DNA of 64,000 bases from positions 68,995-132,994 of the forward strand of contig DASW01000009.1 in the NCBI GenBank assembly GCA_002503985.1, read 5' to 3'. The stretch's first letter is position 1. Every line of letters begins with the position of its first letter. Under the pieces are notes generated by a model. It searched no databases, had not been told where the DNA came from, and worked only from the letters and a program-made list of their open reading frames with translations. This stretch comes from Thermoplasmata archaeon UBA61 (lineage in GTDB: Archaea > Thermoplasmatota > Thermoplasmata > Lutacidiplasmatales > UBA184). The position numbers were made by a program, and so were the translations under genes. Below, one piece after another: positions 5,187-46,867 of this stretch.

Positions 5187-6616
5187 TGGCCACGAAGGAA
5201 TCGACCTCCAGCCGCGCGTCGCCCGCTGTCCCGGTCGACTACCGGACGATCGACCGGGTCGCGGGACCGCTCCTGTTCGTGCGGGACGTCGCGAACGCGG
5301 CGTATGGGGAGATCGTCGAGATCCAGCTCCCGACCGGCGAGCGTCGCCAGGGCCAGGTCCTCGACTCGCGCAAGGGCCTCGCGATCGTCCAGGTCTTCGG
5401 CCCAACGATGGGCATCAACCTCGAGCGGACGAGCGTGAAGTTCCTCGGGGAGGTCGCGACCCTGCCCGTCTCGGACGAGATGCTCGGGCGGGTCTTCACC
5501 GGCCTCGGCGAGCCGCGCGACGGCGGCCCGCGGATCGTGAGCGAGACCCGGCTCGAGATCGTCGGGAACGCCATGAACCCGTACTCGCGCGAGGAGCCGA
5601 GCGAGTTCATCCAGACGGGGATCTCCACGATCGACGTCAACAACACCCTGGTCCGCGGGCAGAAGCTCCCGATCTTCTCGGGGGCAGGCCTTCCGCACAA
5701 CCAGATCGCCGCTCAGATCGTCCGCCAGGCGAAGCTCCGCGATTCCTCGGAAGGGTTCGCGGTCGTATTCGCGGCGATGGGGATCACGAGTGAAGAGGCG
5801 AACTACTTCCTACGGGAGTTCGAATCGACCGGGGCGCTCGAGCGCGCCGTCGTCTTCCTGAACCTCTCGTCAGACCCGTCCATGGAACGGGTCGTGACGC
5901 CCCGCATGGCGCTCACCGCCGCCGAGTTCCTCGCCTACGAGCGGGACCTCCACATCCTGGTCGTGCTCACCGACATGACGAACTACTGCGAGGCGCTCCG
6001 CGAGGTCTCCGCCGCGCGGGAGGAGGTCCCGGGACGACGCGGCTATCCGGGGTACCTCTACACCGACCTTGCGACCCTCTACGAACGGGCGGGGAAGATC
6101 CACGGTCGCAAGGGGTCGATCACGCAAATCCCCATCCTCACGATGCCCGCGGACGACGTCACCCACCCGATCCCGGACCTTACGGGCTACATCACCGAAG
6201 GTCAGGTGTACATCAGCCGGGACCTCCAGCGCCGCGGGATCTACCCGCCGATCGACATCCTGCCGTCGCTCTCGCGCCTCATGGGTCAGGGGATCGGCAA
6301 GGGACGGACGCGGGAAGACCACCGCGGGGTCTCGGACCAGCTCTTCGCGACCTACGCGACGGGTAAGGACCAACGGGCGCTCTCCGCCATCGTCGGCGAG
6401 GAGGCGCTCACCGCCACCGACCGGCTGTACCTCAAGGCGGCCGACCGCTTCGAGTCCGAGTTCGTGAACCAGCGACCGGACGAGGACCGGACGATCGACG
6501 AGAGCCTCGCCCTCGCCTGGGACATCCTCGCGGACTTCCCCGAGTCGGAGCTGAAGCGCATCCGTCCGGAGTTCATCGAGAAGTACCGGCCGAAGCGGGC
6601 GGCTCCCCCTTCGTAG
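5186..6616 (+). CDS. atpB: A-type ATP synthase subunit B
   Basis: 476 aa with a TAATG overlap onto atpA. Typical non-catalytic B-subunit core: [52 protein letters not shown]. Confidence 0.95.
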
Positions 6617-6633
6617 GCGGCGACGAACCGACG

Positions 6634-7278
6634 ATGCCGGCCGAAACCGTCCGACCGACCCGCCTCGAGCTTCTGCGGACCCGCCGGCGGATCGTGGTCG
6701 CGACGAAAGGGCTCAACCTCCTTAAGCTGAAGCGCTCCGCGCTGATCGTCGAGTTCTTCGCCCTCTCCCGCGAGGCGATGAAGTTGCGCGGCGACCTTCG
6801 GTCGCGCATCGACCGGGGCTACGAATCGATCCGGATGGCCGAGATGCTGGAAGGACCGACCCGACTCGAGAATATCTCGAGCCTCCTCCCCGACATCGCA
6901 CCGGTCGCCGTCACGACCAAGAACGTCATGGGGGTCCGCACTCCCCGGGTCGACCGCGGCGGCTACGCGCCGACCCCGACCCCCGACCTCCTCGACCTCC
7001 CGGTGTCGATCCAAGAGGCGATCCGCCGCTTCCAGCGGATCTACGAGGTCGTCCTCGACATCGCCGAGAAGGAGAACGCCCTACGGCGCCTCCTCAAGGA
7101 GATCGAGAAGACGAAGCGTCGGGCGAGCGCGATCGAGAACGTCCTCATCCCACGCCTTCAGGGCGTGGTCCGCTACATCAAGTTCCGATTCGACGAGCTC
7201 GAGCGCGACTCGTTCAGCATGCTCAAGACCGTCAAGCGGAAGATGGAGCAGGAGGGCAGCAGTGCGAGCGCAGCCTAA
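6634..7278 (+). CDS. atpD: A-type ATP synthase subunit D (central stalk)
   Basis: 214 aa: VRPTRLELLRTRRRIVVATKGLNLLKLKRSALIVEF...EKTKRRASAIENVLIPRL is the subunit D pattern. Confidence 0.9.
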   Translation: MPAETVRPTRLELLRTRRRIVVATKGLNLLKLKRSALIVEFFALSREAMKLRGDLRSRIDRGYESIRMAEMLEGPTRLENISSLLPDIAPVAVTTKNVMGVRTPRVDRGGYAPTPTPDLLDLPVSIQEAIRRFQRIYEVVLDIAEKENALRRLLKEIEKTKRRASAIENVLIPRLQGVVRYIKFRFDELERDSFSMLKTVKRKMEQEGSSASAA

Positions 7279-7389
7279 CGCCGCGGTCCGGCGGTTCACC
7301 GCCGTATGGGGGGTTAGCATCGCGGTCCGTGCCGCCGCGCTCGCCGTCCTCCTCCTGGTCGTGCTCAAACTCCTGGGAGGATACTAACG

Positions 7390-7749
7390 ATGGTCACTAC
7401 CACCGCCGGAGCGGCCGCGCCGGGCTCGCTCGAGGCCCTGAAACGCGTGAAAGCGACCGAGACCGAGTGGGACGCGCGCCTGAACGCCGCCCGCCAGGAA
7501 GCCGAGGCCACGCTCCGACGGCTCCGGGAGGACCGGGACGCCGCGGTGAAGGCCGCGGAGGCGGAAGCGGACCGACGGCGGACCGTCCGGCTCGACCGCG
7601 CCCGGGTCGAGACCGCCGCTGAGGCGGAGGCCATCGTCGCCGACGGCCGCTTGGCCGCGGAACGGGCTGCGCGCAGCGAAGGCCGTCGACCGGCGGACAA
7701 GAAGGACGCGCTCCTCGACGTCGTTCTCGGGTCGTTCGGGAAGGAATAG
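7390..7749 (+). CDS. atpH: A-type ATP synthase subunit H (peripheral stalk), tentative
   Basis: 119-aa Ala/Glu/Arg-rich predicted coiled coil immediately upstream of atpI. A GGAGGA sits 8 nt before the ATG. Assignment rests on size, composition and position only. Confidence 0.55.
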   Translation: MVTTTAGAAAPGSLEALKRVKATETEWDARLNAARQEAEATLRRLREDRDAAVKAAEAEADRRRTVRLDRARVETAAEAEAIVADGRLAAERAARSEGRRPADKKDALLDVVLGSFGKE

Positions 7750-7758
7750 GAGCCGCGA

Positions 7759-9753
7759 GTGGCGCTGCGCCCGGTCCGTATGGCAAAGGTCGGCCTCCTC
7801 GGTCTCAAGGAGGATGAGGAACGGATCCTCACCGTCCTTCACGACCTCCGGGTGGCCCAGGTCGAGCCGCTCTCGCCCGACGCGATGGCCGAGCTCGGAC
7901 CCGAGCGGGGGCCCGAGACGCTGCGCCAAGTGGGAGACGAGACGCTCCGGTTCCGCGGCCTTCTGAGCGCCCTCCCGGCCGGGCACGCCGGCCCGCCCCG
8001 ACGTTTCGATTCGATCGCGGAGATCCTCGCGGCCGCGAAGACCGTCCCGATCGACTCCGAGGTCGGGGAGTTGAAACGGGAGGACGACCGGCTCGCCACC
8101 GACGAGAAGGCGACGGCCGGGCAGGCCCAGCTGCTCGAGCGCCTCTCGTTCTATCCCGACCGGCTCGAGTTCCTGGATGCCCGCAGCTTCCACGCTTTCT
8201 ACGGAGAATCGACGCCCGAGGACTACACGACGTTCGCATCCGCCCTCTCGGCCGAGCACGACGTCCAACTCTTGGTCGGGCCGCCCGGCGAGAGCGTCCG
8301 CTTCCTGGTCCTTCTCCCCCCGGGGGGCGTGGACACGCTGTCCCGCCTATCGCAGACCCGTGGGGTCCACCTGTCGGCGGTACCTCGGCTATCGGGGACG
8401 GTCGCCGAAGAGCTCGCGGCGCTCCGCACTCGAGCGGCCGAGGTCGCCCAGCGGCGGGGCGAGATCGCGGCTCGGCTGATCGCGATCTCCCAGGAATGGT
8501 ACCCGCTGGTCAGCGCGGTCGCCGAAGCGCTCGAGATCGAGAACCGGAAGGCGGAGGTCGTCACGAAGCTGGGCGCGAGCCGCGCCGCCTTCGCCCTCGA
8601 GGCCTGGGTCCCCGAGCGGGACATCGCACGGCTCGAGGCGGTCGTAGAGCGGGAGAGCGGGAACCGAACGTTCTTCTACCGGGTCCCGACCTCGGAGGAG
8701 CCCCCCACCCTCATGTCGAACCCGCGCGGGGTTCGTCGGTTCGAGTTCTTCGTGCGTTTCTATTCGCTCCCGCAGTCGACCGAGTGGGACCCCACCCTCG
8801 TCTTCGCGATCGCCTTCCCCATCTTCTTCGGGTTCATGCTCAGCGACTGGGGCTACGGTCTCGTCATCCTGCTGATCTCGCTCTGGATGATCGCCGGATT
8901 CCCGGCGGCCCGGTACCTGCCGAAGTTCGGCCGGAACTTCGTCAAGATGATCATGGGGCCGAAAGGGATGCAGCAGCTCGCCTACGCGCTCCTTCCCGGG
9001 TGCGCGATCGCGATCGGCCTCGGCCTCTACTCGAACGAGTTCTTCGGCTACCCGCTCCTGACCGTCCTCTTTCACTACGCGGGGCCGTCGCTGGACAAGT
9101 CCGTGCCGACCTACCTGCTCTTTGCCGGGTTCGTCGGCCTCGGGATGGTCGTCCTCGGTTTCGTCATGGGAGCCCTGAAGGAGTACTTCCATCACCACCC
9201 GAGGGGCGTGGTCGCGAAGAGCGGCGGGGTGCTCTTTGCCTTCGGGGTCGCGTTCTTCGGCCTCGCGGTCATCCATCGGGCGACCTCGGTCTCCGCCGAC
9301 CCGCTCATCGTCGTCTGGTATGCCTGCCTCGCAGTCGGCCTCGCGATGCTCCTCTTCGGCGAGGGCCTTCAGATGGGGCTGATGGGGCTCATCGAGGTTG
9401 TGAGTCACATCCTCTCCTACACGCGTCTGGTCGGGATCCTGCTCGCGAGCGCCATCCTCGCGCTCGTCATCAACACCATCGGGGGCGGCCTCGTCCTCGG
9501 CGGGACGGTGGTCGGGATCGTCGCGGGCCTCGTCATCATCGTCATCGGCCAGTCGTTCAACGTCATCATCGGCGTCTTCGAGCCGGGGATCCAAGGGGCG
9601 CGGCTGATCTTCGTCGAGTACTTCTCGAAGTTCTACACCGGCAACGGGAAGGTCTTCCGGCCGTTCGGGTCCCCTCGGACCCACACGGTCTCGCCCCTCG
9701 AAGCCCCCGGAGCGCTCCCCGCCGGACCGATCGTCCGGACCCCGGGGGAGTGA
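7759..9753 (+). CDS. atpI: A-type ATP synthase subunit I (membrane a-subunit)
   Basis: 664 aa. It has an N-terminal soluble half and a C-terminal multi-TM half with the conserved SHILSYTRLVGILLAS arginine helix. Confidence 0.9.
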   Translation: MALRPVRMAKVGLLGLKEDEERILTVLHDLRVAQVEPLSPDAMAELGPERGPETLRQVGDETLRFRGLLSALPAGHAGPPRRFDSIAEILAAAKTVPIDSEVGELKREDDRLATDEKATAGQAQLLERLSFYPDRLEFLDARSFHAFYGESTPEDYTTFASALSAEHDVQLLVGPPGESVRFLVLLPPGGVDTLSRLSQTRGVHLSAVPRLSGTVAEELAALRTRAAEVAQRRGEIAARLIAISQEWYPLVSAVAEALEIENRKAEVVTKLGASRAAFALEAWVPERDIARLEAVVERESGNRTFFYRVPTSEEPPTLMSNPRGVRRFEFFVRFYSLPQSTEWDPTLVFAIAFPIFFGFMLSDWGYGLVILLISLWMIAGFPAARYLPKFGRNFVKMIMGPKGMQQLAYALLPGCAIAIGLGLYSNEFFGYPLLTVLFHYAGPSLDKSVPTYLLFAGFVGLGMVVLGFVMGALKEYFHHHPRGVVAKSGGVLFAFGVAFFGLAVIHRATSVSADPLIVVWYACLAVGLAMLLFGEGLQMGLMGLIEVVSHILSYTRLVGILLASAILALVINTIGGGLVLGGTVVGIVAGLVIIVIGQSFNVIIGVFEPGIQGARLIFVEYFSKFYTGNGKVFRPFGSPRTHTVSPLEAPGALPAGPIVRTPGE

Positions 9754-9773
9754 GCCCGCCCGGGCGGAGCGCG

Positions 9774-10850
9774 CTAAAGGCGGGGCGACACGAGCAGCGG
9801 GGTCAGCCGGTCCGCAGGCACCCCGTACAGGCGGCCGAACACCGCTCGGCGCAGGTCGCTGCGCTCGAGCTCGTTCCGGATCAGGAAGGCGAAGATGACG
9901 CTCAGCGAGAGCGGATAGGTCCTCAGCCGCTTCAGCTCGGACGTAGCTCGCTCGCGTTCGAGAGCCACCTCGTACCCCGTCAGGCTGCCGGCGGACTCGA
10001 ACTCCGTCACGCCTTCCCCGATGGAGGGGAACCGGGACGCGAGGCGCTCGGCGAGGTCGGGGACGGTCCGCGCCGAGAAGAGGTCCGAGGCGAGCGTCGC
10101 GGTCAACGTGCCCCCGTCCGTCCACCGGGCGACGACGTCGTCGACCGGGAGGTGGTGGGCCTTTCCCTTGAGGAGGAGGAGGGCGTTCCGCGCATCGATC
10201 TCGCTCTGAACGAGGGCGCGCACCACCCACTCGTCGCCTTGGAAGAACCGCGCCTGGGCGAGCACGTTGCGGTAGTACTCCTTGTCGAGCGCGCGCAGGA
10301 TGGGGAAGATGTTGTGGGTCCGCTCGAACGCCTCGAGGAACGGCAGGATCGTCGCCCCGTAGCCGTACCTCACGAGCGAGGTGACCATCGCTTCGACGGT
10401 CGTCTGGCCGAGGAGAATCCGAAAATCGTCCAGGTTCATCGCGCCCGCGTAGAGACCCGCGGGGATCTCGCGGCTCGAGATCAGGTGGTCCTCGGTCTCG
10501 GTGACCCCCAACCCCTTCGCCTTCGCCGTGAGGATCATCTCGATGTTCTGGATGTCCCAGCGGCCCAGGTACGCCCCGACGACCGAGCGCCCCGCGAACG
10601 GGGTCGCCTCGAACGCGTGTCGGTTCCTCCGCACGAACGTGCGATTGATCGCGAGCTCGACCAGGGAGGCACCGGAATGGGTCGCTCGGACGCGGGCGAT
10701 GTCCTCGGCGTACGGGGTCGTTTCAAGGACCTTCGCGAACTCGTTCGGGTCCTTGGTGGCCAAGAGCAGCGGGTACGTCTCCTTCGGAAGGAAGGCGGGG
10801 AACTCCGGGTTCAGCCGACCGAGCGCGCTGGCGTAGGGGGAGGCGGCCAT
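9774..10850 (-). CDS. atpC: A-type ATP synthase subunit C (V-type d homologue)
   Basis: 358 aa, an all-helical protein of the expected size next to atpE/atpK (YASALGRL...KDPNEFAKVLETTPY...). Confidence 0.85.
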   Translation of the reverse strand: MAASPYASALGRLNPEFPAFLPKETYPLLLATKDPNEFAKVLETTPYAEDIARVRATHSGASLVELAINRTFVRRNRHAFEATPFAGRSVVGAYLGRWDIQNIEMILTAKAKGLGVTETEDHLISSREIPAGLYAGAMNLDDFRILLGQTTVEAMVTSLVRYGYGATILPFLEAFERTHNIFPILRALDKEYYRNVLAQARFFQGDEWVVRALVQSEIDARNALLLLKGKAHHLPVDDVVARWTDGGTLTATLASDLFSARTVPDLAERLASRFPSIGEGVTEFESAGSLTGYEVALERERATSELKRLRTYPLSLSVIFAFLIRNELERSDLRRAVFGRLYGVPADRLTPLLVSPRL

Positions 10851-38369: not shown

Positions 38370-39173
38370 TCATTCCTTGCGCAGCTTCCAGATTGTCTCG
38401 AGCGGCCAGGACCGGCCCCATTTCGCATCGGGGCGAGAGAGGTACCTCGACTGCCGTCCAGGGGTCGGACGAGTTTCCATCAAGCGCTCGACGGTGAGGC
38501 CATTCTTCCGGAACAGGTCGATCCAAGTACCGTACGGAAGTTGGAACTCGACCGCCGCGTCGCTTCCGAGGTCGATGCGATAGCTCCCGAAGTACGGGCG
38601 GAGTAGACGGCGAGATTGTCGGTCCTTCGCGCGGTCGAACGTCACGTAGCGAAAGGGGCTCGCGGTCGCGAACACGAACTTCCCTCCGGGGCGGAGCACA
38701 CGGGCGCACTCGGGTACCGTCCGCATCGGGTCGGCGAACGTCATCGCTCCCCAATCGCAGAAGACGAGGTCGAACACGCCATCCCGCAACGGAAGCTGTT
38801 CTGCGCTGGCGCGTACCAGGGGGAAGCGGACCTTGGACTCCCGCTGGAGCTCTCGGGCCCTCGCGAGCTGGACCGACGAAAGGTCGATGCCCGTCGACCG
38901 GGCCCCTCCGCGAGCCAGCGCAATCGACCAGCGGGCCGCGCCGCAACCGAGTTCCAGGATGGCTTTCCCGCGCGTATTCCCAAGAAGACCCAATTTACTC
39001 TCCGGTACCCGGAACAACCCCCACGCGGTGGCGGATGTTCCCCCCAATACACAGGCGTGACGACAGTCGTACCACCCGCTTATCCGGTCCCAGACAGCGC
39101 GGTTGTAGCGAATGTGCCCGGCCGAACCCGCCGTCCGACTCCGCGAGCGCTTACGTTTGCGTTGGCGATCCAT
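38370..39173 (-). CDS. class I SAM-dependent methyltransferase
   Basis: Frame of ORF 38370..39566, ATG at 39173. Motif I is ILELGCGAARWSIALARGGARSTGIDLS, followed by FDLVFCDWG and LRPGGKFVF. The 131 codons upstream look non-coding. Confidence 0.75.
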   Translation of the reverse strand: MDRQRKRKRSRSRTAGSAGHIRYNRAVWDRISGWYDCRHACVLGGTSATAWGLFRVPESKLGLLGNTRGKAILELGCGAARWSIALARGGARSTGIDLSSVQLARARELQRESKVRFPLVRASAEQLPLRDGVFDLVFCDWGAMTFADPMRTVPECARVLRPGGKFVFATASPFRYVTFDRAKDRQSRRLLRPYFGSYRIDLGSDAAVEFQLPYGTWIDLFRKNGLTVERLMETRPTPGRQSRYLSRPDAKWGRSWPLETIWKLRKE

Positions 39174-39269
39174 CCGGAACACACGACTCGGACGTTTCGG
39201 ATAACGCTCGCGGCGGTGGTGCCGTGCCTCCCCACGCCGGGCGGTCGACGAGGACCAGAGTTCCTTGCG

Positions 39270-39447
39270 AACCCAACGCATCGGAATTCCTGAAGGCGCG
39301 AACGTCGGTGTCATGCCCCGTCCCGACCCGGTCGAGCCGGGCGAACTCACCGTCGGAACCGACGCTCGGTTCGGCTCTGCGTGGGTGAGTGTGGGTCGTC
39401 GCGCGTTTCTCACCGGGGAGAATTCACCGAGAGCTTCCGCTCTACGC
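39270..39447 (+). mobile_element. possible decayed remnant of the 3' end of an IS related to the one at 45.3-46.9 kb
   Basis: Colinear matches to the intact IS end: CACCGG (39411-16 / 46808-13), GGAGAATTCA (39417-26 / 46818-27), TTCCGCTCTACGC (39435-47 / 46849-61). There is also weak peptide similarity (RIGIPEG.. vs AAGIPTG..; AWVSVGRRA vs RWMTVLREA). It sits at the compositional boundary. Confidence 0.3.
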
Positions 39448-39503
39448 GGTTCTGTTACTATCCGGGGCTTTCTGACTGTCGGACCGAGGGTGTTACAATT
39501 CGA

Positions 39504-39531
39504 GTCTTTTCGGCCGTCAAGATTCAGGCTG
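39504..39531 (+). repeat. copy 1 of a ~28-nt motif shared by two upstream regions in the island
   Basis: GTCTTTTCGGCCGTCAAGATTCAGGCTG, 72 nt upstream of ATG 39603. It has 23 of 28 aligned positions identical to copy 2, including a 13-nt exact core GGCCGTCAAGATT. Confidence 0.4.
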
Positions 39532-39602
39532 CCCCTGCCCGCGCAAGAGTTTAAGGGTCCATGCACTGCAGTTGTACATCCGTCGCGGTGGGGGGCGCCG
39601 GA

Positions 39603-39782
39603 ATGTCGGATTCGGGCTCAGGCGCGGGGGCGATTATCGCAATCGCGGCAGTCGCCATCGGTGCTACCGTTGCCGCCGGTCTTCTGGCCAATCGAAAGGT
39701 CCCGTGCCCTCGGTGCAAGAACCCTATTCGGCGAGGCATAGCCCAATGTCCCTATTGCTACAGCTCGATCACATGGTCGTGA
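39603..39782 (+). CDS. small membrane-anchored zinc-ribbon protein
   Basis: Frame of ORF 39561..39782, ATG at 39603. MSDSGSGAGAIIAIAAVAIGATVAAGLLANRK is the TM helix and VPCPRCKNPIRRGIAQCPYCYSSITWS is a CPxC...CPxC ribbon. Confidence 0.55.
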   Translation: MSDSGSGAGAIIAIAAVAIGATVAAGLLANRKVPCPRCKNPIRRGIAQCPYCYSSITWS

Positions 39783-39795
39783 ACGGCGGAAAGGA

Positions 39796-40725
39796 ATGGA
39801 CTGGATAGAGAATCTGGCTGTTGTTGCCTACATTTTTGTCATAGTTTTTGGCGTCATTTACACCATCGCTCTAATCGCTCTGCTTTTCAAGATGATGGCC
39901 AAAGAACGAGGCTCATCGAAGAAGACGCCCAAGACAGAGTTGTCCCTCGGCGAACAGATTTCCGAAGGAAAAGTACGGCCGTACTGTTATGTGAATGGCC
40001 CGGAGGTCAAGGCAGTGTACGCTCGATGCATCGGCCCGGTTCCCGAGGAGCGGCATGTCAAGACGGCTTCGACCACTCAATCGAAGCTCGAAGTGGGAGG
40101 CCCAGTGGCGAAGGGCAGCGGACAGAAGGAGGATTCAGAGAAGAACGCGTTGGACTTCTCGGCTCCTTTGGACGATGTGCTGGCCCAGGAGCTGATGGAA
40201 GAACTGGTCAGGCAGGACCACGTTGCCTTCGACTTGGAAGCTAGCCGACCCGACCAGGACCGATTGAACGCACTCATGGAAGCAACCGGCCGACTGGCCG
40301 GGATTGGAGCTTCGGAGATACTCGACGGCGCGAAGGTAGAGAAGCTCAAGGCCAAACTCACGGCCGGCCAAGCAACATCAAAAGATGAGAAAATCAAGGA
40401 AGTGGAACGTGCGTGCCAGAAGGCGTTCGTCGGGTTGAGGGGAGAGTTCGTGGTCGGAATGGAGGTGGGCCCGATTCCCACGGGCGGTGGGACGCCATCT
40501 ATCGAAGCAAGAGCGAACGTCCTCCGTTTGGAGCTGCCAAGCAGCGTGGTAATCTCGGCCCCGTTCGATATGACAATGATGAAACCTCACATGATCTCTT
40601 TGCTGACACCATCGCGGAAGGTTTCCAACGTGATGGTGTTCGGATCGATTCTAGATTGGAACAAAGACCAAGCGATTCTTACCGTGACGCCATTGGTGAT
40701 TGCGCCGAACTGGCCACTGACCTAA
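39796..40725 (+). CDS. N-terminally membrane-anchored protein, unknown family (309 aa)
   Basis: GGAAAGG lies 5 nt before the ATG. The TM helix is ENLAVVAYIFVIVFGVIYTIALIALLF. A charged helical middle region and a beta-rich C-terminal part follow. It lies in the AT-richest part of the window. Confidence 0.6.
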   Translation: MDWIENLAVVAYIFVIVFGVIYTIALIALLFKMMAKERGSSKKTPKTELSLGEQISEGKVRPYCYVNGPEVKAVYARCIGPVPEERHVKTASTTQSKLEVGGPVAKGSGQKEDSEKNALDFSAPLDDVLAQELMEELVRQDHVAFDLEASRPDQDRLNALMEATGRLAGIGASEILDGAKVEKLKAKLTAGQATSKDEKIKEVERACQKAFVGLRGEFVVGMEVGPIPTGGGTPSIEARANVLRLELPSSVVISAPFDMTMMKPHMISLLTPSRKVSNVMVFGSILDWNKDQAILTVTPLVIAPNWPLT

Positions 40726-40777
40726 CTGTACTCGACTGAACTCAGCGCCCTAGCGGTGGAGACTCCGTACTCCTCTG

Positions 40778-40804
40778 GTCTTCCTGGCCGTCAAGATTAG
40801 GTTG
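40778..40804 (+). repeat. copy 2 of the shared ~28-nt upstream motif
   Basis: GTCTTCCTGGCCGTCAAGATTAGGTTG, 56 nt upstream of ATG 40860. Confidence 0.4.
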
Positions 40805-40859
40805 TAACGGGTCGGGACCTACTCTATTTCGGCCGGCGGGTATTGGGGGCGACGAATCG

Positions 40860-41534
40860 ATGACCGACACGCCCAAGCTCTTTGTGCTGACAGGTGTGCC
40901 CGGGTCCGGAAAGACCTCGGCTGCAAATCGAATTGCCTTCGCTCCCGCAGAAGACTGGAACCTATTGCACGCGGACGATTTCATCGGACCCACTTTCGCA
41001 AAATATCCCCCACTACAAGACGCTCGGTCGGGATTTGTGACTACAATGCCGACGAACTCATTCTCCACGGTCTCTGGCTCAAGCTACGTGACGGAGACGG
41101 GGGCCACCACGACGGTGGCAACTCACTGGGCCAGTATTCGCCAGTTTCACACGATTTTCGTTGGTGAATCGGCCGGCTGGTATATGTCTCAGGGCCGGAA
41201 TATTTTCGTGGAAGGCCACATCAAGGATCAGGTGGAACTGGACAATCTGTTGGAAGCAATCCCGAACCGCTACGACGGCCCTTTCGACCAAAAGGTCGTC
41301 AGGCTTGAAGGAGATGTGGATAAAATCGTCCGGTACCTTGTAGACTCCCAGCACCGTAGGCATCAATGTCCAGGGCCGAACCGAGAGGCTTGTCTGCGTC
41401 GCTGGATTACCGAGTGGGGGATTGAAACCTGTATCGCAGATCAGACGGTCAATATCAATGGGAAGACCCCCCAGAAAGTCGCCCAAGACGTCGCGGCCGC
41501 GTTCGGGTTCCTATCAGTCGATTCCCGGGTGTAA
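40860..41534 (+). CDS. P-loop NTPase/kinase-fold protein (AAA_33/zeta-toxin-like architecture)
   Basis: 224 aa. Walker A is LFVLTGVPGSGKTSAANRIA, followed by LLHADDFIG (Asp-containing motif) and NIFVEGHIKD. There is a Ser/Thr-rich insertion. It is followed by the hairpin CCCCCTC-GG-GAGGGGG (41551-41566) and a T-rich tract. Confidence 0.6.
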   Translation: MTDTPKLFVLTGVPGSGKTSAANRIAFAPAEDWNLLHADDFIGPTFAKYPPLQDARSGFVTTMPTNSFSTVSGSSYVTETGATTTVATHWASIRQFHTIFVGESAGWYMSQGRNIFVEGHIKDQVELDNLLEAIPNRYDGPFDQKVVRLEGDVDKIVRYLVDSQHRRHQCPGPNREACLRRWITEWGIETCIADQTVNINGKTPQKVAQDVAAAFGFLSVDSRV

Positions 41535-41701
41535 CGGGTCGAGGCTTCGGCCCCCTCGGGAGGGGGGTGTTTCATTTCTCGCAGGGATACCCCTCCCCCC
41601 TCTCCCCTTATATCGGATGAAACCCTCCTTTCATTGCACGACAGTGGAGGAACGGCACCCATGAGCGCTCGGCCTAAGCACCCGAGTCTCGACCATTCTT
41701 C

Positions 41702-42268
41702 ATGGGAATGAGTGAAACCCGTCAGACCACGGCTGAATCGAGCCCCAACCTGCTAAGGGACATCGTAGTGTACATTGGCCGTCGGGTGAGCCTGAACGGA
41801 ACCAGGGTTCAGAAACTCCTCTATCTGGTCGAGGCCGAGTACGCCGATCGGAACGGAGCTCGCCTGATGGACTATGAGTTCTACCACAATCGGTTCGGAA
41901 TGAACTCCAAGACCTTGGAGGATCGGGTCCTCGCCATGAAGGAAGAGAAAGGCGGACCCCTCTTCATTACCTTCCAGAAGACCGATGTGGGCATGGGCCT
42001 CCGAATTAAGGTTAAGGACGACGTACCCCAGCCCACTCTACCTGCCGAAGTCAAGGCGGCCTGTGATTTCGTTATCCGCGAATACGGGTCGATGCCCTTG
42101 ACTTCGCTAATGCATGCCGCCAAGCGAACCCTTCCGTTTTACGGAACGGAGGATGGCGACAAGGTCGATTGGTCGAGCGTGAAAAAGGTCGACCAGTGTA
42201 ACCACAAGCTTTCGGAGAATGGTCGACGTATTCTGCAGAGGGCTTTATCGGCCGGAGAGGGTTCGTAG
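41702..42268 (+). CDS. Panacea-domain (DUF4065, SocA/GepA-like) putative antitoxin
   Basis: 188 aa: RVQKLLYLVEAEYADRNGARLMDYEFYHNRFGMNSKTLEDRVL matches the DUF4065 core (.LQKLLY......la..g.pl....F.aw.yGP....l). Confidence 0.65.
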   Translation: MGMSETRQTTAESSPNLLRDIVVYIGRRVSLNGTRVQKLLYLVEAEYADRNGARLMDYEFYHNRFGMNSKTLEDRVLAMKEEKGGPLFITFQKTDVGMGLRIKVKDDVPQPTLPAEVKAACDFVIREYGSMPLTSLMHAAKRTLPFYGTEDGDKVDWSSVKKVDQCNHKLSENGRRILQRALSAGEGS

Positions 42269-42291
42269 TCCTGAACACTCCGGTAGCCCCC

Positions 42292-42573
42292 GTGCGCGTC
42301 ATCAGCTTGAGCGACCCTCCATACAAACGACGGCCCAACAAGGAGTTCGACGCCCAACTACTGCCAGATGGGTCCCCGGCTGAGCGGTTACTGAAGAACT
42401 GTATGGATAGGATTCTGAGGGCACCCAAATCCTTCGGGAATGTCTCGGTGGAACCGAAAGGTACGCGGCATTGCCACCTGGGAAAGAGTGGGATTCTGTG
42501 GTGGAAAGTCCACGAGGCGACTAAAGAGGTCGAGTTTTTGTCCTGGGGTGATTGGGACGATTACTTCGGTTAA
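42292..42573 (+). CDS. RelE/YafQ-like toxin (ParE/RelE superfamily)
   Basis: 93 aa. The C-terminal PKGTRHCHLGKSGILWWKVHEATKEVEFLSWGDWDDYF resembles the RelE/YafQ pattern (..eCHi..d.lLiY.v.....l.l.r.GsHsdLF). It starts 23 nt after the Panacea gene. Confidence 0.55.
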   Translation: MRVISLSDPPYKRRPNKEFDAQLLPDGSPAERLLKNCMDRILRAPKSFGNVSVEPKGTRHCHLGKSGILWWKVHEATKEVEFLSWGDWDDYFG

Positions 42574-42624
42574 GGTGCCAGAACCTATCGATCTTGACTG
42601 GCGGCCTTATCGTCACGTTGCTCC

Positions 42625-43500
42625 GTGGTGCACCCCGTGAGTGGCTCCGTCAGGCGCCGACCAGGAGTTCGCGCGACGGCTGTATTGGGCTCGGCCTGGG
42701 TCGATGAGGTCCGCGAGACAATACCCACCGTTTCCGAACAGATTGAGGCGGGGCTGGCCGAGATACGTCGGCAGGGGTTCAACGAAGAACTGGCCCGATC
42801 CGAGTTCGGAAGGTGGTTAGTCGCCTCCCATCACGAGGTCGAGCGAATATACCGGGCCGCAGAGGATGCGGCCTTGAGCATGCTCGTCGATAAGTGGGTC
42901 GCGAGTGCGACTCCACCCACCCCCACGGAGAACTTCCAAGAATGGCTTCGGTCGTTTCTGTCCCGAGCGGCGCGGGATTTTACCGCCTTCGAGTTTCGAG
43001 CGGGTCAGGCGAGAAAGTCTCGCGCTGGGTCGGTCTGGGAGAGGCTGGGGGGCTTCTTTCTTGAATGGAATGGCATTCACTCCGAGAAGCCCACAGGAAA
43101 GGCCGCACGGAAGCTACGCCAGATTGACAAAGTGGTCCCATCGGTGCTCGTCGCACTCACTACCCCCGACCGGGCCATTCGACTTAGCTTCAAGACAGAA
43201 GCCAGGGAAAAGTGGCGGGTCCTAATCGATGAGGGCAGGCGCGGATACGTGTACTTGGTTACTCTCGGCGACGACATCACGCCCGACCGGCTGGAAGAAA
43301 TGGCTGATACCCGTCTGGTCGCCTTCGTTCCCAAGAGCGTCAAAGAGGGAAGATCGGAATTCAGAGACAACCCGTCTATCCGTGTGCTTGACGAGCTGGT
43401 CGCCGAAGTGCGGCGATACGATTCTGCCGGGCCTCCTCCGACACCACCGCAGCAAATCCCCACCGGGGTCCGCCCCGCTCGGGTTCGAAAGCTCGATTAG
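42625..43500 (+). CDS. putative type II restriction endonuclease
   Basis: 291 aa, start uncertain (several GTG/TTG). FRAGQARKSRAGSVWERLGGFFL followed by QIDKVVP...SFKTEAREKW resembles the R.G...E helper plus PD-(D/E)xK blocks of several type II enzymes. It is convergent with, and overlaps by 4 nt, a DNA methyltransferase gene. Confidence 0.5.
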   Translation: MVHPVSGSVRRRPGVRATAVLGSAWVDEVRETIPTVSEQIEAGLAEIRRQGFNEELARSEFGRWLVASHHEVERIYRAAEDAALSMLVDKWVASATPPTPTENFQEWLRSFLSRAARDFTAFEFRAGQARKSRAGSVWERLGGFFLEWNGIHSEKPTGKAARKLRQIDKVVPSVLVALTTPDRAIRLSFKTEAREKWRVLIDEGRRGYVYLVTLGDDITPDRLEEMADTRLVAFVPKSVKEGRSEFRDNPSIRVLDELVAEVRRYDSAGPPPTPPQQIPTGVRPARVRKLD

Positions 43501-44795
43501 TTTCTGGGCCGATTGAATATCAGAACGTACTCGTTCGCCATCGTCTCCCCAAGCTGCCCCGGAATGTTGCTCGGGGAGTTTCGGAGCGGCATGACCTTGT
43601 TAGGAATGCCTCGGACGATCGTCTCCTCGTGGACCAAGCCGCATTCATGCTCGAACAATTCAGACAGGATCACGTCGGTTTCGAGGCGGACCCCCTTGAC
43701 GGTTCGATTGCCCACAACGACGCATGCCCTCCCGCCCGGAGCGAGTTTGCCAGCGACCCATCGAAAAGCCCCGCAGAGGTCCACATAGAACGATAGGACG
43801 TCTCGCGCACGCGCCGGGTCCTTCGCCCGAATATCGGTAAGGTGACGGTCCAAGGTTGGAGAGTCGGGTCGGGGGGTCAGCTCTGCTGCGGGTCGGCCTC
43901 CCAAGGATTCCCGGTCGGTTCGGTTCACGGTGGCCCTGTCGTAGCCAAGCCAACTGAGGGAGAGGCTGGAGTACTGGCCGTACGCGACTGTTGTCCGGCT
44001 GTCTCCATAAGGGGGAGAGGTAACGATTAGGTCGTAGGTCCCGTTCGGGAGAGCCGCCGGGTCGCGCGTGTCGCCCAGTACGACGTTTGCCGTTGGGACT
44101 CCTTTCGGAAGACGGGACACAAAGTCACCCATCTTCTCCCGGTTGTGAACGACAACACTTGCGAATGAGCCGAGCACGGACGGACGCCAATCCTTGCGCT
44201 TTTCCTCCGGCATCCGATAGGTCTTGTACTCGTCCTTCCGAGTCCACGACACGAACCGAGCGGTTTCGGCAAAGCATGCCTCAAAGAACCGGCGCAGTTC
44301 CTCGGATTCGGTGGCGAGAATCGCCGCGCGCAGACGTGAGAGTTCGGCGACAGATCGGGCGGAGTACCAGAAACTGAGGTTCTGGATATCCACGTTCGCA
44401 GGTGCGGATGTGATCTCGTCGTACCGTCTCAATATGGCCTGATGCTCGACCCGGATGGCGCGGTCGGTCAGCGGCGTAGTTTTGGCTCGGGCGAGGAGCA
44501 CCGCCAGCGGATTCAGATCAACGCCGACGGCGGTCATGCCGTGAAGCATTCCCTCTACGAGTGCCGAGCCGGACCCGCAGAACGGGTCCAAGAGTCGCCC
44601 TCCGTTCTTAATGGGGGAGTACTCGTCTATCAGCCTTCTGACGACAGGGGCAACCATCATCGCCGGATAGCGATAGATTCCGTGAGTGGCGTACTTGGTG
44701 TCCTCACCCCGGAAGTCCCACGAAGGGTCGGCCCGACGAAGCCGACGAGGGTCGGATTCAAGCGAGGCCGGGGCACGCGCGAGCGACTGTGCCAC
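43497..44795 (-). CDS. N6-adenine/N4-cytosine DNA methyltransferase
   Basis: 432 aa. The AdoMet motif is LLDPFCGSGSALVEG and the catalytic motif is LIVTSPPYGDS about 180 aa later. GTG start. Confidence 0.75.
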   Translation of the reverse strand: MAQSLARAPASLESDPRRLRRADPSWDFRGEDTKYATHGIYRYPAMMVAPVVRRLIDEYSPIKNGGRLLDPFCGSGSALVEGMLHGMTAVGVDLNPLAVLLARAKTTPLTDRAIRVEHQAILRRYDEITSAPANVDIQNLSFWYSARSVAELSRLRAAILATESEELRRFFEACFAETARFVSWTRKDEYKTYRMPEEKRKDWRPSVLGSFASVVVHNREKMGDFVSRLPKGVPTANVVLGDTRDPAALPNGTYDLIVTSPPYGDSRTTVAYGQYSSLSLSWLGYDRATVNRTDRESLGGRPAAELTPRPDSPTLDRHLTDIRAKDPARARDVLSFYVDLCGAFRWVAGKLAPGGRACVVVGNRTVKGVRLETDVILSELFEHECGLVHEETIVRGIPNKVMPLRNSPSNIPGQLGETMANEYVLIFNRPRN

Positions 44796-45079
44796 TATCC
44801 TACCCCCACCCCTCCATTTCGAGTGGAGACTGGAGCAACCTTCTTGCGAGGGGTATCGGGCGGGATAGGGTAGACCCGTTTCATCTGACCCTCTATCGCG
44901 ATTCGGACCTTTCCGTCGGCTTCGAGTTGGCCGATGTACCGGCCGACAGTCTGTCGGCTGTGATTCAGTTCTCTTGCGATCTTCTCGGACCAGGTTCCTT
45001 CGGGATGTAGTTGGACGTAGTCGAGGATTTCCTTCTCCATCGTGCGGTTTCCCATCCGTCTCGGTTCGTCCGTAGCCAT
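44795..45079 (-). CDS. small winged-helix DNA-binding protein (possible R-M controller)
   Basis: 94 aa: EKEILDYVQLHPEGTWSEKIARELNHSRQTVGRYIGQLEADGKV. Its stop overlaps the methyltransferase GTG by 1 nt. Confidence 0.6.
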   Translation of the reverse strand: MATDEPRRMGNRTMEKEILDYVQLHPEGTWSEKIARELNHSRQTVGRYIGQLEADGKVRIAIEGQMKRVYPIPPDTPRKKVAPVSTRNGGVGVG

Positions 45080-45145
45080 TCGTGGAATGGTTCGGGCGCC
45101 CCGATTGGATTATCCTATCGGCGCAACTGAAGCGAATGACCGTTA

Positions 45146-45179
45146 TAACGATATGCCTGTCGGATTAACGGATATGCCT
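45146..45179. promoter_or_regulatory. direct repeat TAACG(G)ATATGCCT x2, candidate operator upstream of the wHTH-methylase operon
   Basis: TAACGATATGCCT (45146-45158) and TAACGGATATGCCT (45166-45179) start 20 nt apart. They lie 67-100 nt upstream of the wHTH ATG (45077-45079). A TATA-like GATAGGATAAT (minus strand, about 45108-45118) lies between them and the gene. Confidence 0.35.
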
Positions 45180-45213
45180 AAAGGGGTAGGGGCATGGAAG
45201 TGGGCAGAGGACT

Positions 45214-46845
45214 GTGATGAACTCCGAACGTCGGGGTCGTACTCAGCCGCGCTTGGAAGATTTTGACAGCCGTCCCTTCGACGTTTCAGAGCGGACGGAG
45301 ACCTTCCCCGTTCGCGGCTCCACCGACCATATGAGAGAGGTTCCTTCCCTCGCACCTAGGATCGCCGCCACCACTTGCGGGATCGTGGCGTGTACCGACG
45401 AGGACCCGGGCTGCGTCCGTATCACCCGGGACGAATACTCACCGACCGAGGACTCCGGTTTCTCCGACATGCCTACTACGGCAGTAGGTGGCCGCCTATA
45501 TCAACTTGCTCTAAACGTTGGGGTGCAGATTGGCCAAAGTCTTAAGTATGGGAGGGCCTCTACTATTAGACAAGGCATTAGACAACGCCTGAGGAGAAAG
45601 AGGATGACGGAAGCGGCAGAACGAATGAGCGAGGCCGACTGGTGGCGCTCGCACTCTTGGACAGACCAGAGAACGCCGGCGCTCGCCATCGTCGCGAGGG
45701 GAGACCAAATCCGGACGCTCGACCCAGCGACCTACTCCGTGCGATCACAGAGCCATCCCGAGGAGGCGCACACCGTCTCGCAGGAAGGTGGCCGGTGGTC
45801 GTGTGACTGTGCCTTCTTCTCGTCGGCCCGGATGACGTGCATTCACATTCTCGCGGTGCGATTCAGGAATGGACTCCAGGAGAACGCGCCGACCCATAGC
45901 GTGCCTGCGGTGGTCTGCGAGTCCTGTCGGTCAACGGATGTAATCCGCAAGGGTGTGCGCCGAAACAAGAGCGGCGATGTGATGCTCTACCTCTGTTCGA
46001 CGTGCGGTCGCCGGTTCGCCGGGCGCGAGGGCTTCCACAACCGCCGGGCCGACCCGGAGAAGATTGCCCTGGCCCTCGACCTCTACTTCCGCGGCATGAG
46101 CGTGCGAAAGATTCAGGAGCATTTCCGGCAGGTCCACCAACTCAAGGTTAGCCACGTCACCGTCTACCGCTGGGTCGCGCACTTCGGGAAGATCGCAGCC
46201 GAATGGATGGACGCTCAGGGGGCCCGGACCTCGGACCGCTGGCACGTCGACGAGACGGTGGTCGGAGTGAATGGAATTAACAAGTATCTCTGGAATGTTT
46301 TGGATCATGAAACGCGGTTCCTCCTGGCCACCCATGTCAGCCGGGGCCGGAACCTCAAGGATACCCGCGCCCCGCTTCACAAGGCCAAGGAGGCGACTCC
46401 CGACCGCCCGGTGGATGTCCTGACCGATGGGATGCAGACCTACCCCGAGGCCGTCAGTAAGGAACTCGGCCGGAGGGCCACTCCGTTCGACGACCCGAGG
46501 CTCGTCCGCAGAGGGTGGTTCAGCCCGCACCGGAGGGTTCCGAGCATCCGGGCCAAAGAGTCAAACAACCGCATCGAGCGGTTCCACGGCACGGAGAAGG
46601 AGCGGGTCAAGGTCATGCGAGGGTTCGACAACGACGGAGGAACGTCGGCGCTCATGGAGGGTTTCCGGGCGCACTACAATTTGGTCAAGGATCACCAAAC
46701 GCTGGGAATGACGCCCGGCGAAGCGGCAGGAATTCCGACGGGCGATGGGTTCCGTTGGATGACGGTTCTCAGGGAAGCGACGAAGACCGGAAAGACGCGA
46801 AATGTAACACCGGTCGAGGAGAATTCAGAAGACCCGAAATCGTAA
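45214..46845 (+). CDS. IS6-family (IS240-type DDE) transposase with N-terminal SWIM zinc finger and zinc ribbon
   Basis: SWIM is CDCAFFSSARMTCIHILAV. The ribbon is CESCRS...CSTCGRRF. The DDE core is WHVDETVVGVNGINKYLWNVLDHETRF...DVLTDGMQTYPEA...SNNRIERFHGTEKERVKVMRGF (compare IS26 VDETY..V.G...YL.RAID...NN.IE..HR.IK). The true start is probably internal (ATG 45331 or 45604) if the left IS end is at 45281. Confidence 0.8.
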   Translation: MMNSERRGRTQPRLEDFDSRPFDVSERTETFPVRGSTDHMREVPSLAPRIAATTCGIVACTDEDPGCVRITRDEYSPTEDSGFSDMPTTAVGGRLYQLALNVGVQIGQSLKYGRASTIRQGIRQRLRRKRMTEAAERMSEADWWRSHSWTDQRTPALAIVARGDQIRTLDPATYSVRSQSHPEEAHTVSQEGGRWSCDCAFFSSARMTCIHILAVRFRNGLQENAPTHSVPAVVCESCRSTDVIRKGVRRNKSGDVMLYLCSTCGRRFAGREGFHNRRADPEKIALALDLYFRGMSVRKIQEHFRQVHQLKVSHVTVYRWVAHFGKIAAEWMDAQGARTSDRWHVDETVVGVNGINKYLWNVLDHETRFLLATHVSRGRNLKDTRAPLHKAKEATPDRPVDVLTDGMQTYPEAVSKELGRRATPFDDPRLVRRGWFSPHRRVPSIRAKESNNRIERFHGTEKERVKVMRGFDNDGGTSALMEGFRAHYNLVKDHQTLGMTPGEAAGIPTGDGFRWMTVLREATKTGKTRNVTPVEENSEDPKS

Positions 46846-46867
46846 CAGTTCCGCTCTACGCAAACGT
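45281..46867 (+). mobile_element. IS6-like insertion sequence; ends tentative
   Basis: It contains the transposase gene. The candidate imperfect terminal inverted repeats are ACGTTT-C-AGAGCGGA (45281-45295) and the reverse complement of TCCGCTCT-ACGC-AAACGT (46850-46867). I could not identify target-site duplications. Confidence 0.45.

Follow-up and report, generated by a model that had tools for sequence, protein, structure and literature searches.

An IS6-family transposon upstream of ftsZ in a Thermoplasmata archaeon and the three genes at its left end

Genes at the locus

A stretch of 64,000 nucleotides from Thermoplasmata archaeon UBA61 (contig DASW01000009.1, positions 68,995 to 132,994 of the forward strand), referred to here as the window, contains three adjacent genes that a first-pass annotation had read as one uncharacterised module in a defence-type island, consisting of a zinc-ribbon peptide, a second membrane protein and a P-loop protein, with a 28-nt motif as their possible shared promoter or operator. 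The host is a UBA184/Lutacidiplasmatales-like member of the Thermoplasmata, its FtsZ being 93–99% identical to that of metagenome-assembled genomes of this group. The island is flanked by the PolD and FtsZ genes and, as had been observed, is the AT-richest part of the window, with a G+C content of 56–61% compared to 64–73% elsewhere. All three open reading frames (ORFs) were present as first described:

39603–39782, forward strand: 59-aa membrane-anchored zinc-ribbon peptide, predicted to be oriented N-out/C-in
39796–40725, forward strand: 309-aa protein with one N-terminal transmembrane (TM) helix and a predicted cytoplasmic domain of no known family
40860–41534, forward strand: 224-aa orphan P-loop kinase-fold protein with the motifs GVPGSGKTS and LLHADDF

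The trio is probably a composite, in which a conserved gene pair and an unrelated P-loop gene are all carried as transposon cargo. The transposon boundaries, the empty site, the conservation of the pair, the non-association of the P-loop gene and the origin of the motif in insertion sequence (IS) ends were observed and, taken jointly, are held with high confidence.

A single transposon insertion

The low-GC island consists of one IS6-family insertion of 7,405 bp (39448–46852), with a G+C content of 59% against 64–73% around it. That it is one insertion follows from the reconstructed empty site, made up of the left flank, one copy of the target-site duplication (TSD) and the right flank, which aligned without gaps across the junction to sister Thermoplasmata species. 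Identity was 122/131 in L022, 100/107 in L026 and 99/107 in L031 (sequences compared with the window are referred to by L numbers throughout). The element was inserted immediately upstream of the ftsZ promoter and its transposase and boundaries are as follows:

39439–39447, no strand: left TSD copy GCTCTACGC; the identical 9-mer stands at 46853–46861 and the empty sites (L022, L026 and L031) each have one copy
39448–39518, forward strand: left inverted repeat (IRL) with the tip GGTTCTGTTAC, identical at 47/71 positions in register to the reverse complement of 46782–46852
45604–46845, forward strand: IS6-family DDE transposase of 413 aa with an N-terminal SWIM finger and a zinc ribbon
46782–46852, reverse strand: right inverted repeat (IRR) with the tip GGAACTGTTAC, overlapping the end of the transposase gene
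46853–46861, no strand: right TSD copy, directly followed by the putative transcription factor B recognition element (BRE) and TATA box of ftsZ (AAACGTTTATGTA)

The 9-bp direct repeat is perfect and lies directly outside both tips. A repeat search paired 39489–39518, at the start of which a second TGTTAC unit of the IRL begins, with 46782–46811, and when followed outward the two ends aligned ungapped over 71 nt with the identity given above. At the right end, the flank homology of relatives restarts at 46845–46849. The IS6 signature is GG tips plus an internal cTGTt motif (PMC7986276), and the GG tips with CTGTT together with the transposase score therefore place the element in this family: the transposase reached 139.6 bits against the NCBIfam IS6 model NF033587 (cut-off 125) and 80.7 bits against Pfam DDE_Tnp_IS240, and SWIM was matched as well. 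The transposase gene also runs into the right end as in IS6/IS26, and the N-terminal zinc finger and extension of the protein are shared with the long transposases of IS6 clades h and i (PMC7986276). In total, eight passenger genes amounting to ~6 kb of cargo are carried. In contrast to the IS6 family, the element holds nested or relic left ends.

A 398-aa maximal ORF on the reverse strand (38370–39566) that overlaps the left end was judged to be a high-G+C artefact; public assemblies call a methyltransferase of 207 aa at 38370–38993 instead. The methyltransferase downstream in L018 was considered as an orthologue of this flanking gene and rejected.

Conservation of the gene pair

A peptide of 55–60 aa with a TM helix and the pattern CPxC-x10-C[PK]xC is encoded 3–13 nt upstream of the 309-aa homologue in all 8 distinct loci that were readable (the window, L001, L012, L013, L014/15, L016–18, L019 and L020), and both adjacency and order were kept among them at identities down to 27%. 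The two genes form a conserved, tightly coupled operon, a conclusion held as firmly as the rest of the architecture. The part of the three-gene proposal that concerns genes 1 and 2 was thus upheld in 8/8 loci, and the pair resides exclusively on mobile DNA. Selection on the pair was evaluated against L001, with synonymous sites close to saturation; the peptide had a dN/dS of 0.03 and the 309-aa protein one of 0.14, values that indicate strong purifying selection.

The family is small. An indexed search of 5.8 billion proteins returned just one relative of the 309-aa protein, 71% identical, and a profile search run exhaustively over 1.84 billion representatives added 7 more full-length clusters at 22–30% identity plus fragments, giving a family of 9 full-length clusters, the window protein included, and 2 partial ones. 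No further relatives were found when the family alignment was used in the indexed protein search. Neither the 309-aa protein nor its 12-sequence family gave a credible match in Pfam, PADLOC, PHROGs, NCBIfam or PDB-sequence searches, in agreement with the earlier description of one N-terminal TM helix and no recognisable family, and tblastn of the protein against phage and plasmid collections found no match. The peptide has, as annotated, one hydrophobic helix and a zinc ribbon (CPRC-x10-CPYC); its Pfam zinc-ribbon matches were weak, none exceeded the curated cut-off, and PADLOC, PHROGs, NCBIfam, PDB sequences and collections of annotated phages and plasmids gave none. In IMG/VR generic zinc-ribbon matches only were obtained, in each case without the partner gene.

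Candidate assignments were discarded on inspection. A weak match of the 309-aa protein to CAF1/CNOT7 (E 0.04) fell where the family has no DEDD acidic residues, P0016, matched in the representative search (18 stretches), is the eukaryotic repeat protein VERL of abalone and a spurious hit, and a pAgo match in PADLOC (E 0.0052, in 1/12 family members) is noise. An alternative 73-aa start of the peptide at 39561 received no support from homologues.

The upstream peptides in the pair loci share a short acidic N-terminus that is followed by one hydrophobic helix. Throughout both families the helix is preceded by residues of net negative charge and followed by residues of net positive charge, and because of this charge bias the positive-inside rule predicts cytoplasmic C-terminal parts for both proteins, that is, an N-out/C-in topology. 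The cytoplasmic parts would then comprise a 25-aa zinc ribbon in the peptide and a domain of ~270 aa in the 309-aa protein. Invariant positions in the 309-aa family hold only hydrophobic residues or Pro (F, W, L, P), with no set that looks catalytic. Both families end in a [LP][NST]W[ST..]-like C-terminal motif (39771–39782 and 40705–40725) in which the Trp is invariant; the peptides end in ITWS, LNWS, LSWS or LTWD and the partners in PNWPLT, LNWSET, LSWTET or PNWTAS.

The P-loop gene

The association seen for the pair did not extend to the third gene. The P-loop gene was found in 0/7 of the other pair-bearing loci and the pair in 0/3 of the loci that encode P-loop homologues (L009–L011), so that absence of co-occurrence elsewhere, which had been named as evidence against a module, was observed for the P-loop gene and not for the pair. 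The P-loop protein is a kinase-fold orphan that was acquired separately from the pair. Its relatives number three and are distant (38–43% identity), and one of them adjoins a type IIG restriction-modification (R-M) gene and a resolvase. A tblastn search of the plasmid collection with the P-loop protein gave no match.

Both P-loop motifs were confirmed, as was the Ser/Thr-rich stretch, which covers residues ~44–88 (45 residues) and is an insertion relative to 2/3 homologues. The Walker A sequence GxPGSGKT is followed ~21 residues on by HADDF and then by hhhEG, which we take to resemble the layout of zeta toxins and polynucleotide kinase (PNK). An AlphaFold2 (AF2) model (pLDDT 68.5, pTM 0.72) had uridine kinase, TmrD, chloramphenicol phosphotransferase, shikimate kinase and adenylate kinase as its top Foldseek matches, with E values of 6e-6 to 1e-4 for the first four and TM-scores of 0.45–0.6 by target length. 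The kinase half of the proposed kinase/zeta-like layout was accordingly sustained at the level of the predicted fold. The zeta half fared less well: AAA_33 (18.3 bits, threshold 27) and Zeta_toxin (14.5 bits, threshold 22.3) both stayed below Pfam gathering and covered residues 4–44 alone, NCBIfam matches were sub-cut-off and limited to the Walker A region, and PADLOC gave P-loop matches at noise level. The protein would thus share a small P-loop kinase fold with zeta-toxin/AAA_33/PNK-like kinases and differ from them in having no epsilon-like partner, in its Ser/Thr-rich insertion and in residing in a host without a murein wall. A gene for an epsilon-type antitoxin was not found next to it, there being no ORF between 40725 and 40860, and the downstream Panacea gene pairs with a 93-aa protein and not with the P-loop gene.

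Origin of the 28-nt motif

The motif and the sequence elements around it are placed as follows:

39504–39531, forward strand: motif copy 1, forming the inner portion of the IRL unit with its start at 39489
39551–39556, forward strand: TATA-like box TTTAAG, ~53 nt upstream of the peptide start codon
40759–40821, forward strand: relic internal left end (IRL') that holds motif copy 2 (40778–40805)
41527–41545, forward strand: marginal third IRL-like fragment over the stop codon of the P-loop gene, a weak feature (score 15; shuffle maximum 14)

The two copies agree at 23/28 positions with one gap, as had been counted before. The 13-mer GGCCGTCAAGATT occurs at only two sites in the 64 kb, one per copy, and the two flanks of the pair resembled each other more closely than in any of 200 shuffles (z 4.9). 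Motif copy 2 lies inside a left-end repeat unit, because 40769–40821 aligns with the left end of the related transposon L063 (42/53 identical; score 31, shuffle mean 7.8, shuffle maximum 13–14). Copy 1 seems to hold the equivalent place in the working end, within the unit that begins at 39489; positions 6–39 of the L063 IRL scored 16 against 39491–39524, marginally above the shuffle maximum of 14, and the IRR carries GTCTTTCCGGTCTTC, which is related to this copy. With as many as 5 of 21 positions allowed to differ, no copy of the motif was found upstream of any orthologue, either in the pair loci or in those of the P-loop relatives. A shared promoter or operator was therefore not borne out, and the motif is not to be treated as an operator. 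The flanking direct repeats were also tried as the scar of a cassette insertion, a candidate that was dropped as they were significant in the window alone and not in 9 other contigs tested.

As a promoter of the pair the TTTAAG at 39551 is likely the better candidate than the motif. A TTTAAA is found at equal distance in L001, with which nucleotide homology begins at 39579.

A different role for the motif was considered, namely that of an operator for the helix-turn-helix (HTH) protein of the element, which would lie in the end repeats and coordinate the cargo from end-borne promoters. The sequence TCTTTTCGGCCGTCAAGA is self-complementary at 14/18 positions, both motif copies stand 17–19 nt upstream of TATA-like sequences, and IS6 elements have the transposase promoter in their left end (PMC7986276), all of which would suit an operator. 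L012 nevertheless encodes a 73%-identical HTH protein beside a homologous pair and has no motif, and in the left end of L063 the same block is adjacent to a gene that points outward, so that an HTH operator is regarded as unlikely.

The relic left end that starts near 40759 sits between the pair and the P-loop gene. Under the preferred composite reading, the P-loop gene would have been acquired independently, behind what remains of the left end of a related transposon. It may once have stood directly behind the transposon left end, and the left side of the element may have grown through repeated end-associated accretion of cargo, stepwise addition at the left end being the simplest reading.

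Rearrangements and signs of activity

Rearranged copies of the left arm were found in other contigs, with the following features in window coordinates:

41601–41602, no strand: duplication breakpoint, at which L005 joins 41601 exactly to the IRL tip with no microhomology
39612–39800, forward strand: 189-bp stretch, taking in almost all of the peptide gene, that is 100% identical in a different mobile element, with junctions in L103 (5001–5189) and L102 (165–353)

In L005, a 520-kb Joint Genome Institute contig, a tandem duplication at 6435–10742 repeats 39448–41601 (2,154 bp) with all three genes. It could be an aberrant product of the transposase or a circle that was resolved as a repeat, and the end-joined duplication and the nested left ends provide indirect hints on the mechanism of transposition. 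Contigs from other samples break at the transposon tip or inside the peptide gene.

The L103 element consists of ORFs that were not assigned to any family, with a tyrosine integrase ~400 nt from the 189-bp stretch and unrelated sequence on both sides. Its ORF over this stretch has a different and longer N-terminus with an extra CPAC and is not followed by a 309-aa partner. L102 joins the transposon left arm to the integrase side. Judged by their junctions, L103 and L102 look like the attP and attL of an integrative element whose attachment site may be the peptide gene itself; a mis-join of the assembly graph at the 189-bp repeat may also account for them. In L104 (1–141, corresponding to window 39667–39793), AACAGAACAGAACC, an inverted IS6-type tip, stands 11 nt after the peptide stop and is followed by host-like high-GC DNA.

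Composite or three-gene system

The duplication bears directly on the view that the trio is one three-component defence or abortive-infection system, co-regulated by the shared motif. The three genes lie side by side in one orientation among toxin-antitoxin (TA), R-M and IS genes, exactly these three were duplicated in L005, and the motif is partly palindromic (TCTT-N10-AAGA), each of its copies being followed ~20 nt downstream by a TATA-like box. This has to be set against the missing co-occurrence of P-loop gene and pair in either set of loci, the relic transposon end that parts them, and the absence both of the motif upstream of orthologues and of a PADLOC match, in view of which a single three-gene system is considered highly improbable. 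The unit to study is the two-gene pair and not the trio.

Some of these observations, along with others, weigh against the composite reading on the IS6-family transposon. The L005 duplication is readable as selection on the trio, and the palindrome with its spacing leaves room for a secondary regulatory role of the motif. The neighbourhood statistics of the pair rest on ~5 informative loci, as the family is rare. Modelling of the 309-aa protein with AF2 from 2 sequences gave a pLDDT of 37.5, which was unusable for a fold search, and PADLOC-DB v2 matched neither the peptide nor any credible 309-aa family member. The element itself departs from its family. IS6 members are typically ~0.7–1.8 kb long with inverted repeats of ~14 bp and a target duplication of 8 bp, and the sole passenger-carrying member, ISDsp3, has one passenger gene (PMC7986276); the window element, compared to a usual length of ~800 bp and a range of ~0.8–1.8 kb, is 7.4 kb long with 8 passengers, has 71-nt two-unit repeats and is flanked by a 9-bp TSD. 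With respect to the TSD, a perfect 9-bp repeat was found in the window, in L063 and in L044, and a chance match of the ninth base in three elements is unlikely.

Other cargo and neighbours of the pair

The TA, R-M and IS neighbours that had been described beside the three genes were all identified within the element, the IS component being the IS6 transposase:

41702–42573, forward strand: SocA/Panacea-domain antitoxin (41702–42268) and 93-aa RelE/YafQ-like protein (42292–42573)
42625–43500, forward strand: EcoRII-C nuclease, the first gene of a type II R-M unit that spans 42625–45079
43497–44795, reverse strand: type II methylase of the R-M unit
44795–45079, reverse strand: HTH protein of the R-M unit

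The antitoxin matched Pfam SocA_Panacea at 26.4 bits, just over the cut-off of 25.7. The match of the 93-aa protein to TIGR00053 YafQ was weak (E 2.7e-4; 21.5 bits, below the cut-off of 87). As in the described pairs of PanA (Panacea) and a toxin (PMC8832971), the Panacea gene is followed 23 nt later by the gene for a small protein, here RelE/YafQ-like. The putative TA pair is a cargo neighbour, nothing links it functionally to the three genes, and a similar pair lies by the cassette in L013.

Elsewhere the gene pair was found beside the following genes:

L001: a weak PIN match, a Panacea-like protein, a weak MmcB-like match and IS elements
L012: an HTH protein 73% identical to that at 44795–45079 of the window, and a methylase-like ORF
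L013: a Panacea and ParE-like pair, and a SWIM plus DDE_Tnp_1 transposase
L014: a type III R-M system, and a TrwC/TraI relaxase-helicase ~5 kb away
L020: a DDE_Tnp_1 (IS4-type) transposase

In L012 (1878–3208) the HTH gene and the methylase-like ORF come after a pair homologue of 29% identity and share its orientation, an arrangement that suggests that cargo blocks have been shuffled between elements.

Possible function of the pair

The peptide and the 309-aa protein may form a non-enzymatic, membrane-tethered cytoplasmic complex that would serve mobile-element conflict, either in defence or exclusion directed against other elements or in addiction. We infer a function of this kind because the pair travels only on mobile DNA beside TA and R-M genes; the class is put forward tentatively, with no choice made between defence, exclusion and addiction. 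Topology, complex formation and conflict function jointly are likewise proposed with low confidence. Of the defence system first suggested, uncharacterised proteins next to TA, R-M and IS genes remain; the PADLOC searches supplied no match and the argument is still one of guilt by association.

By functional analogy the pair resembles the small two-gene membrane defence or exclusion modules of phages and plasmids, which are also short, fast-diverging, devoid of enzymatic motifs and found by R-M and TA genes. It differs from them in having no PADLOC or PHROG similarity and in its soluble parts, which are predicted to be cytoplasmic. At its most specific the proposal would be that of an undescribed two-component, non-enzymatic membrane system acting against competing elements or viruses, carried on an ftsZ-upstream IS6-family transposon that grows at its left end, with the attachment of the integrase element in the peptide gene as a possible counter-move. 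In this full form it is rather doubtful.

The addiction alternative would make the pair a TA module in which one membrane protein harms the membrane and its partner neutralises it, thereby stabilising the element. The tight operon with gaps of 3–13 nt, the membrane anchors and lack of catalytic motifs in both products and the constant location on mobile DNA by other TA genes would be in keeping with such a module. Strong conservation at the dN/dS values given above is not, nor is the zinc ribbon, which is atypical of small membrane toxins. Pfam and NCBIfam scans moreover revealed no TA-family homology, and the integrase-bearing L103 element holds the peptide gene without its partner. Addiction in this form is therefore thought to be distinctly unlikely.

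It was also considered that the pair serves the life cycle of the element itself rather than host defence, as an anchor for DNA transfer or segregation or in entry or superinfection exclusion. The relaxase-helicase ~5 kb from the pair in L014 and the copy of the peptide gene in an integrase-bearing element of unassigned ORFs point in this direction, and membrane-tethered cytoplasmic domains would fit a role in docking. The carriers in the window and in L013 are, on the other hand, transposons without transfer genes, and no similarity to known exclusion or partition proteins was found. A life-cycle role is accordingly rated as rather unlikely, below the broader conflict class. Under the preferred conflict reading, the pair represents a rare "dark-matter" family that is under purifying selection and confined to mobile DNA, and is a reasonable candidate for new archaeal conflict biology.

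Repeated use of the site upstream of ftsZ

The insertion site is shared with other elements. Related IS6-type elements end at the identical position, between ...GTTACAGTTCC and GCTnnACGCAAACGTTTAT, just upstream of the putative ftsZ BRE/TATA. Such ends were present in at least 11 of 80 species representatives (L021, L028, L034, L035, L044, L048, L049, L054, L063, L072 and L098), 9 of which encode a transposase at 52–89% identity. The related elements in L063 and L044 have perfect 9-bp TSDs at this same site. The pattern suggests that the elements target this position specifically, as a safe harbour before an essential gene. The IS6 family is known mostly from the spread of antibiotic resistance; if the site is indeed targeted, the element would illustrate, in soil Thermoplasmata, an archaeal case of IS6-type transposition that is directed to one site and accumulates cargo. 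A review of the family gives no site-specific targeting (PMC7986276), whereas the ftsZ-upstream site of the window element has been reused in many species.

In the L063 transposon a methylase and an HTH gene adjoin the transposase gene, and a 291-aa ORF is also present. The L044 element has an outer and an inner left end (2295 and 3101) that are ~800 bp apart, an arrangement that mirrors the working and relic ends of the window element. Genomes with an empty site also bear a tip-like ACAnnTTCC just before the ftsZ site. In L022, the closest relative with an empty site, unrelated sequence of ~2 kb (7832–9860) takes the place of ~130 nt that lie immediately to the left of the insertion site in the window (39258–39390).

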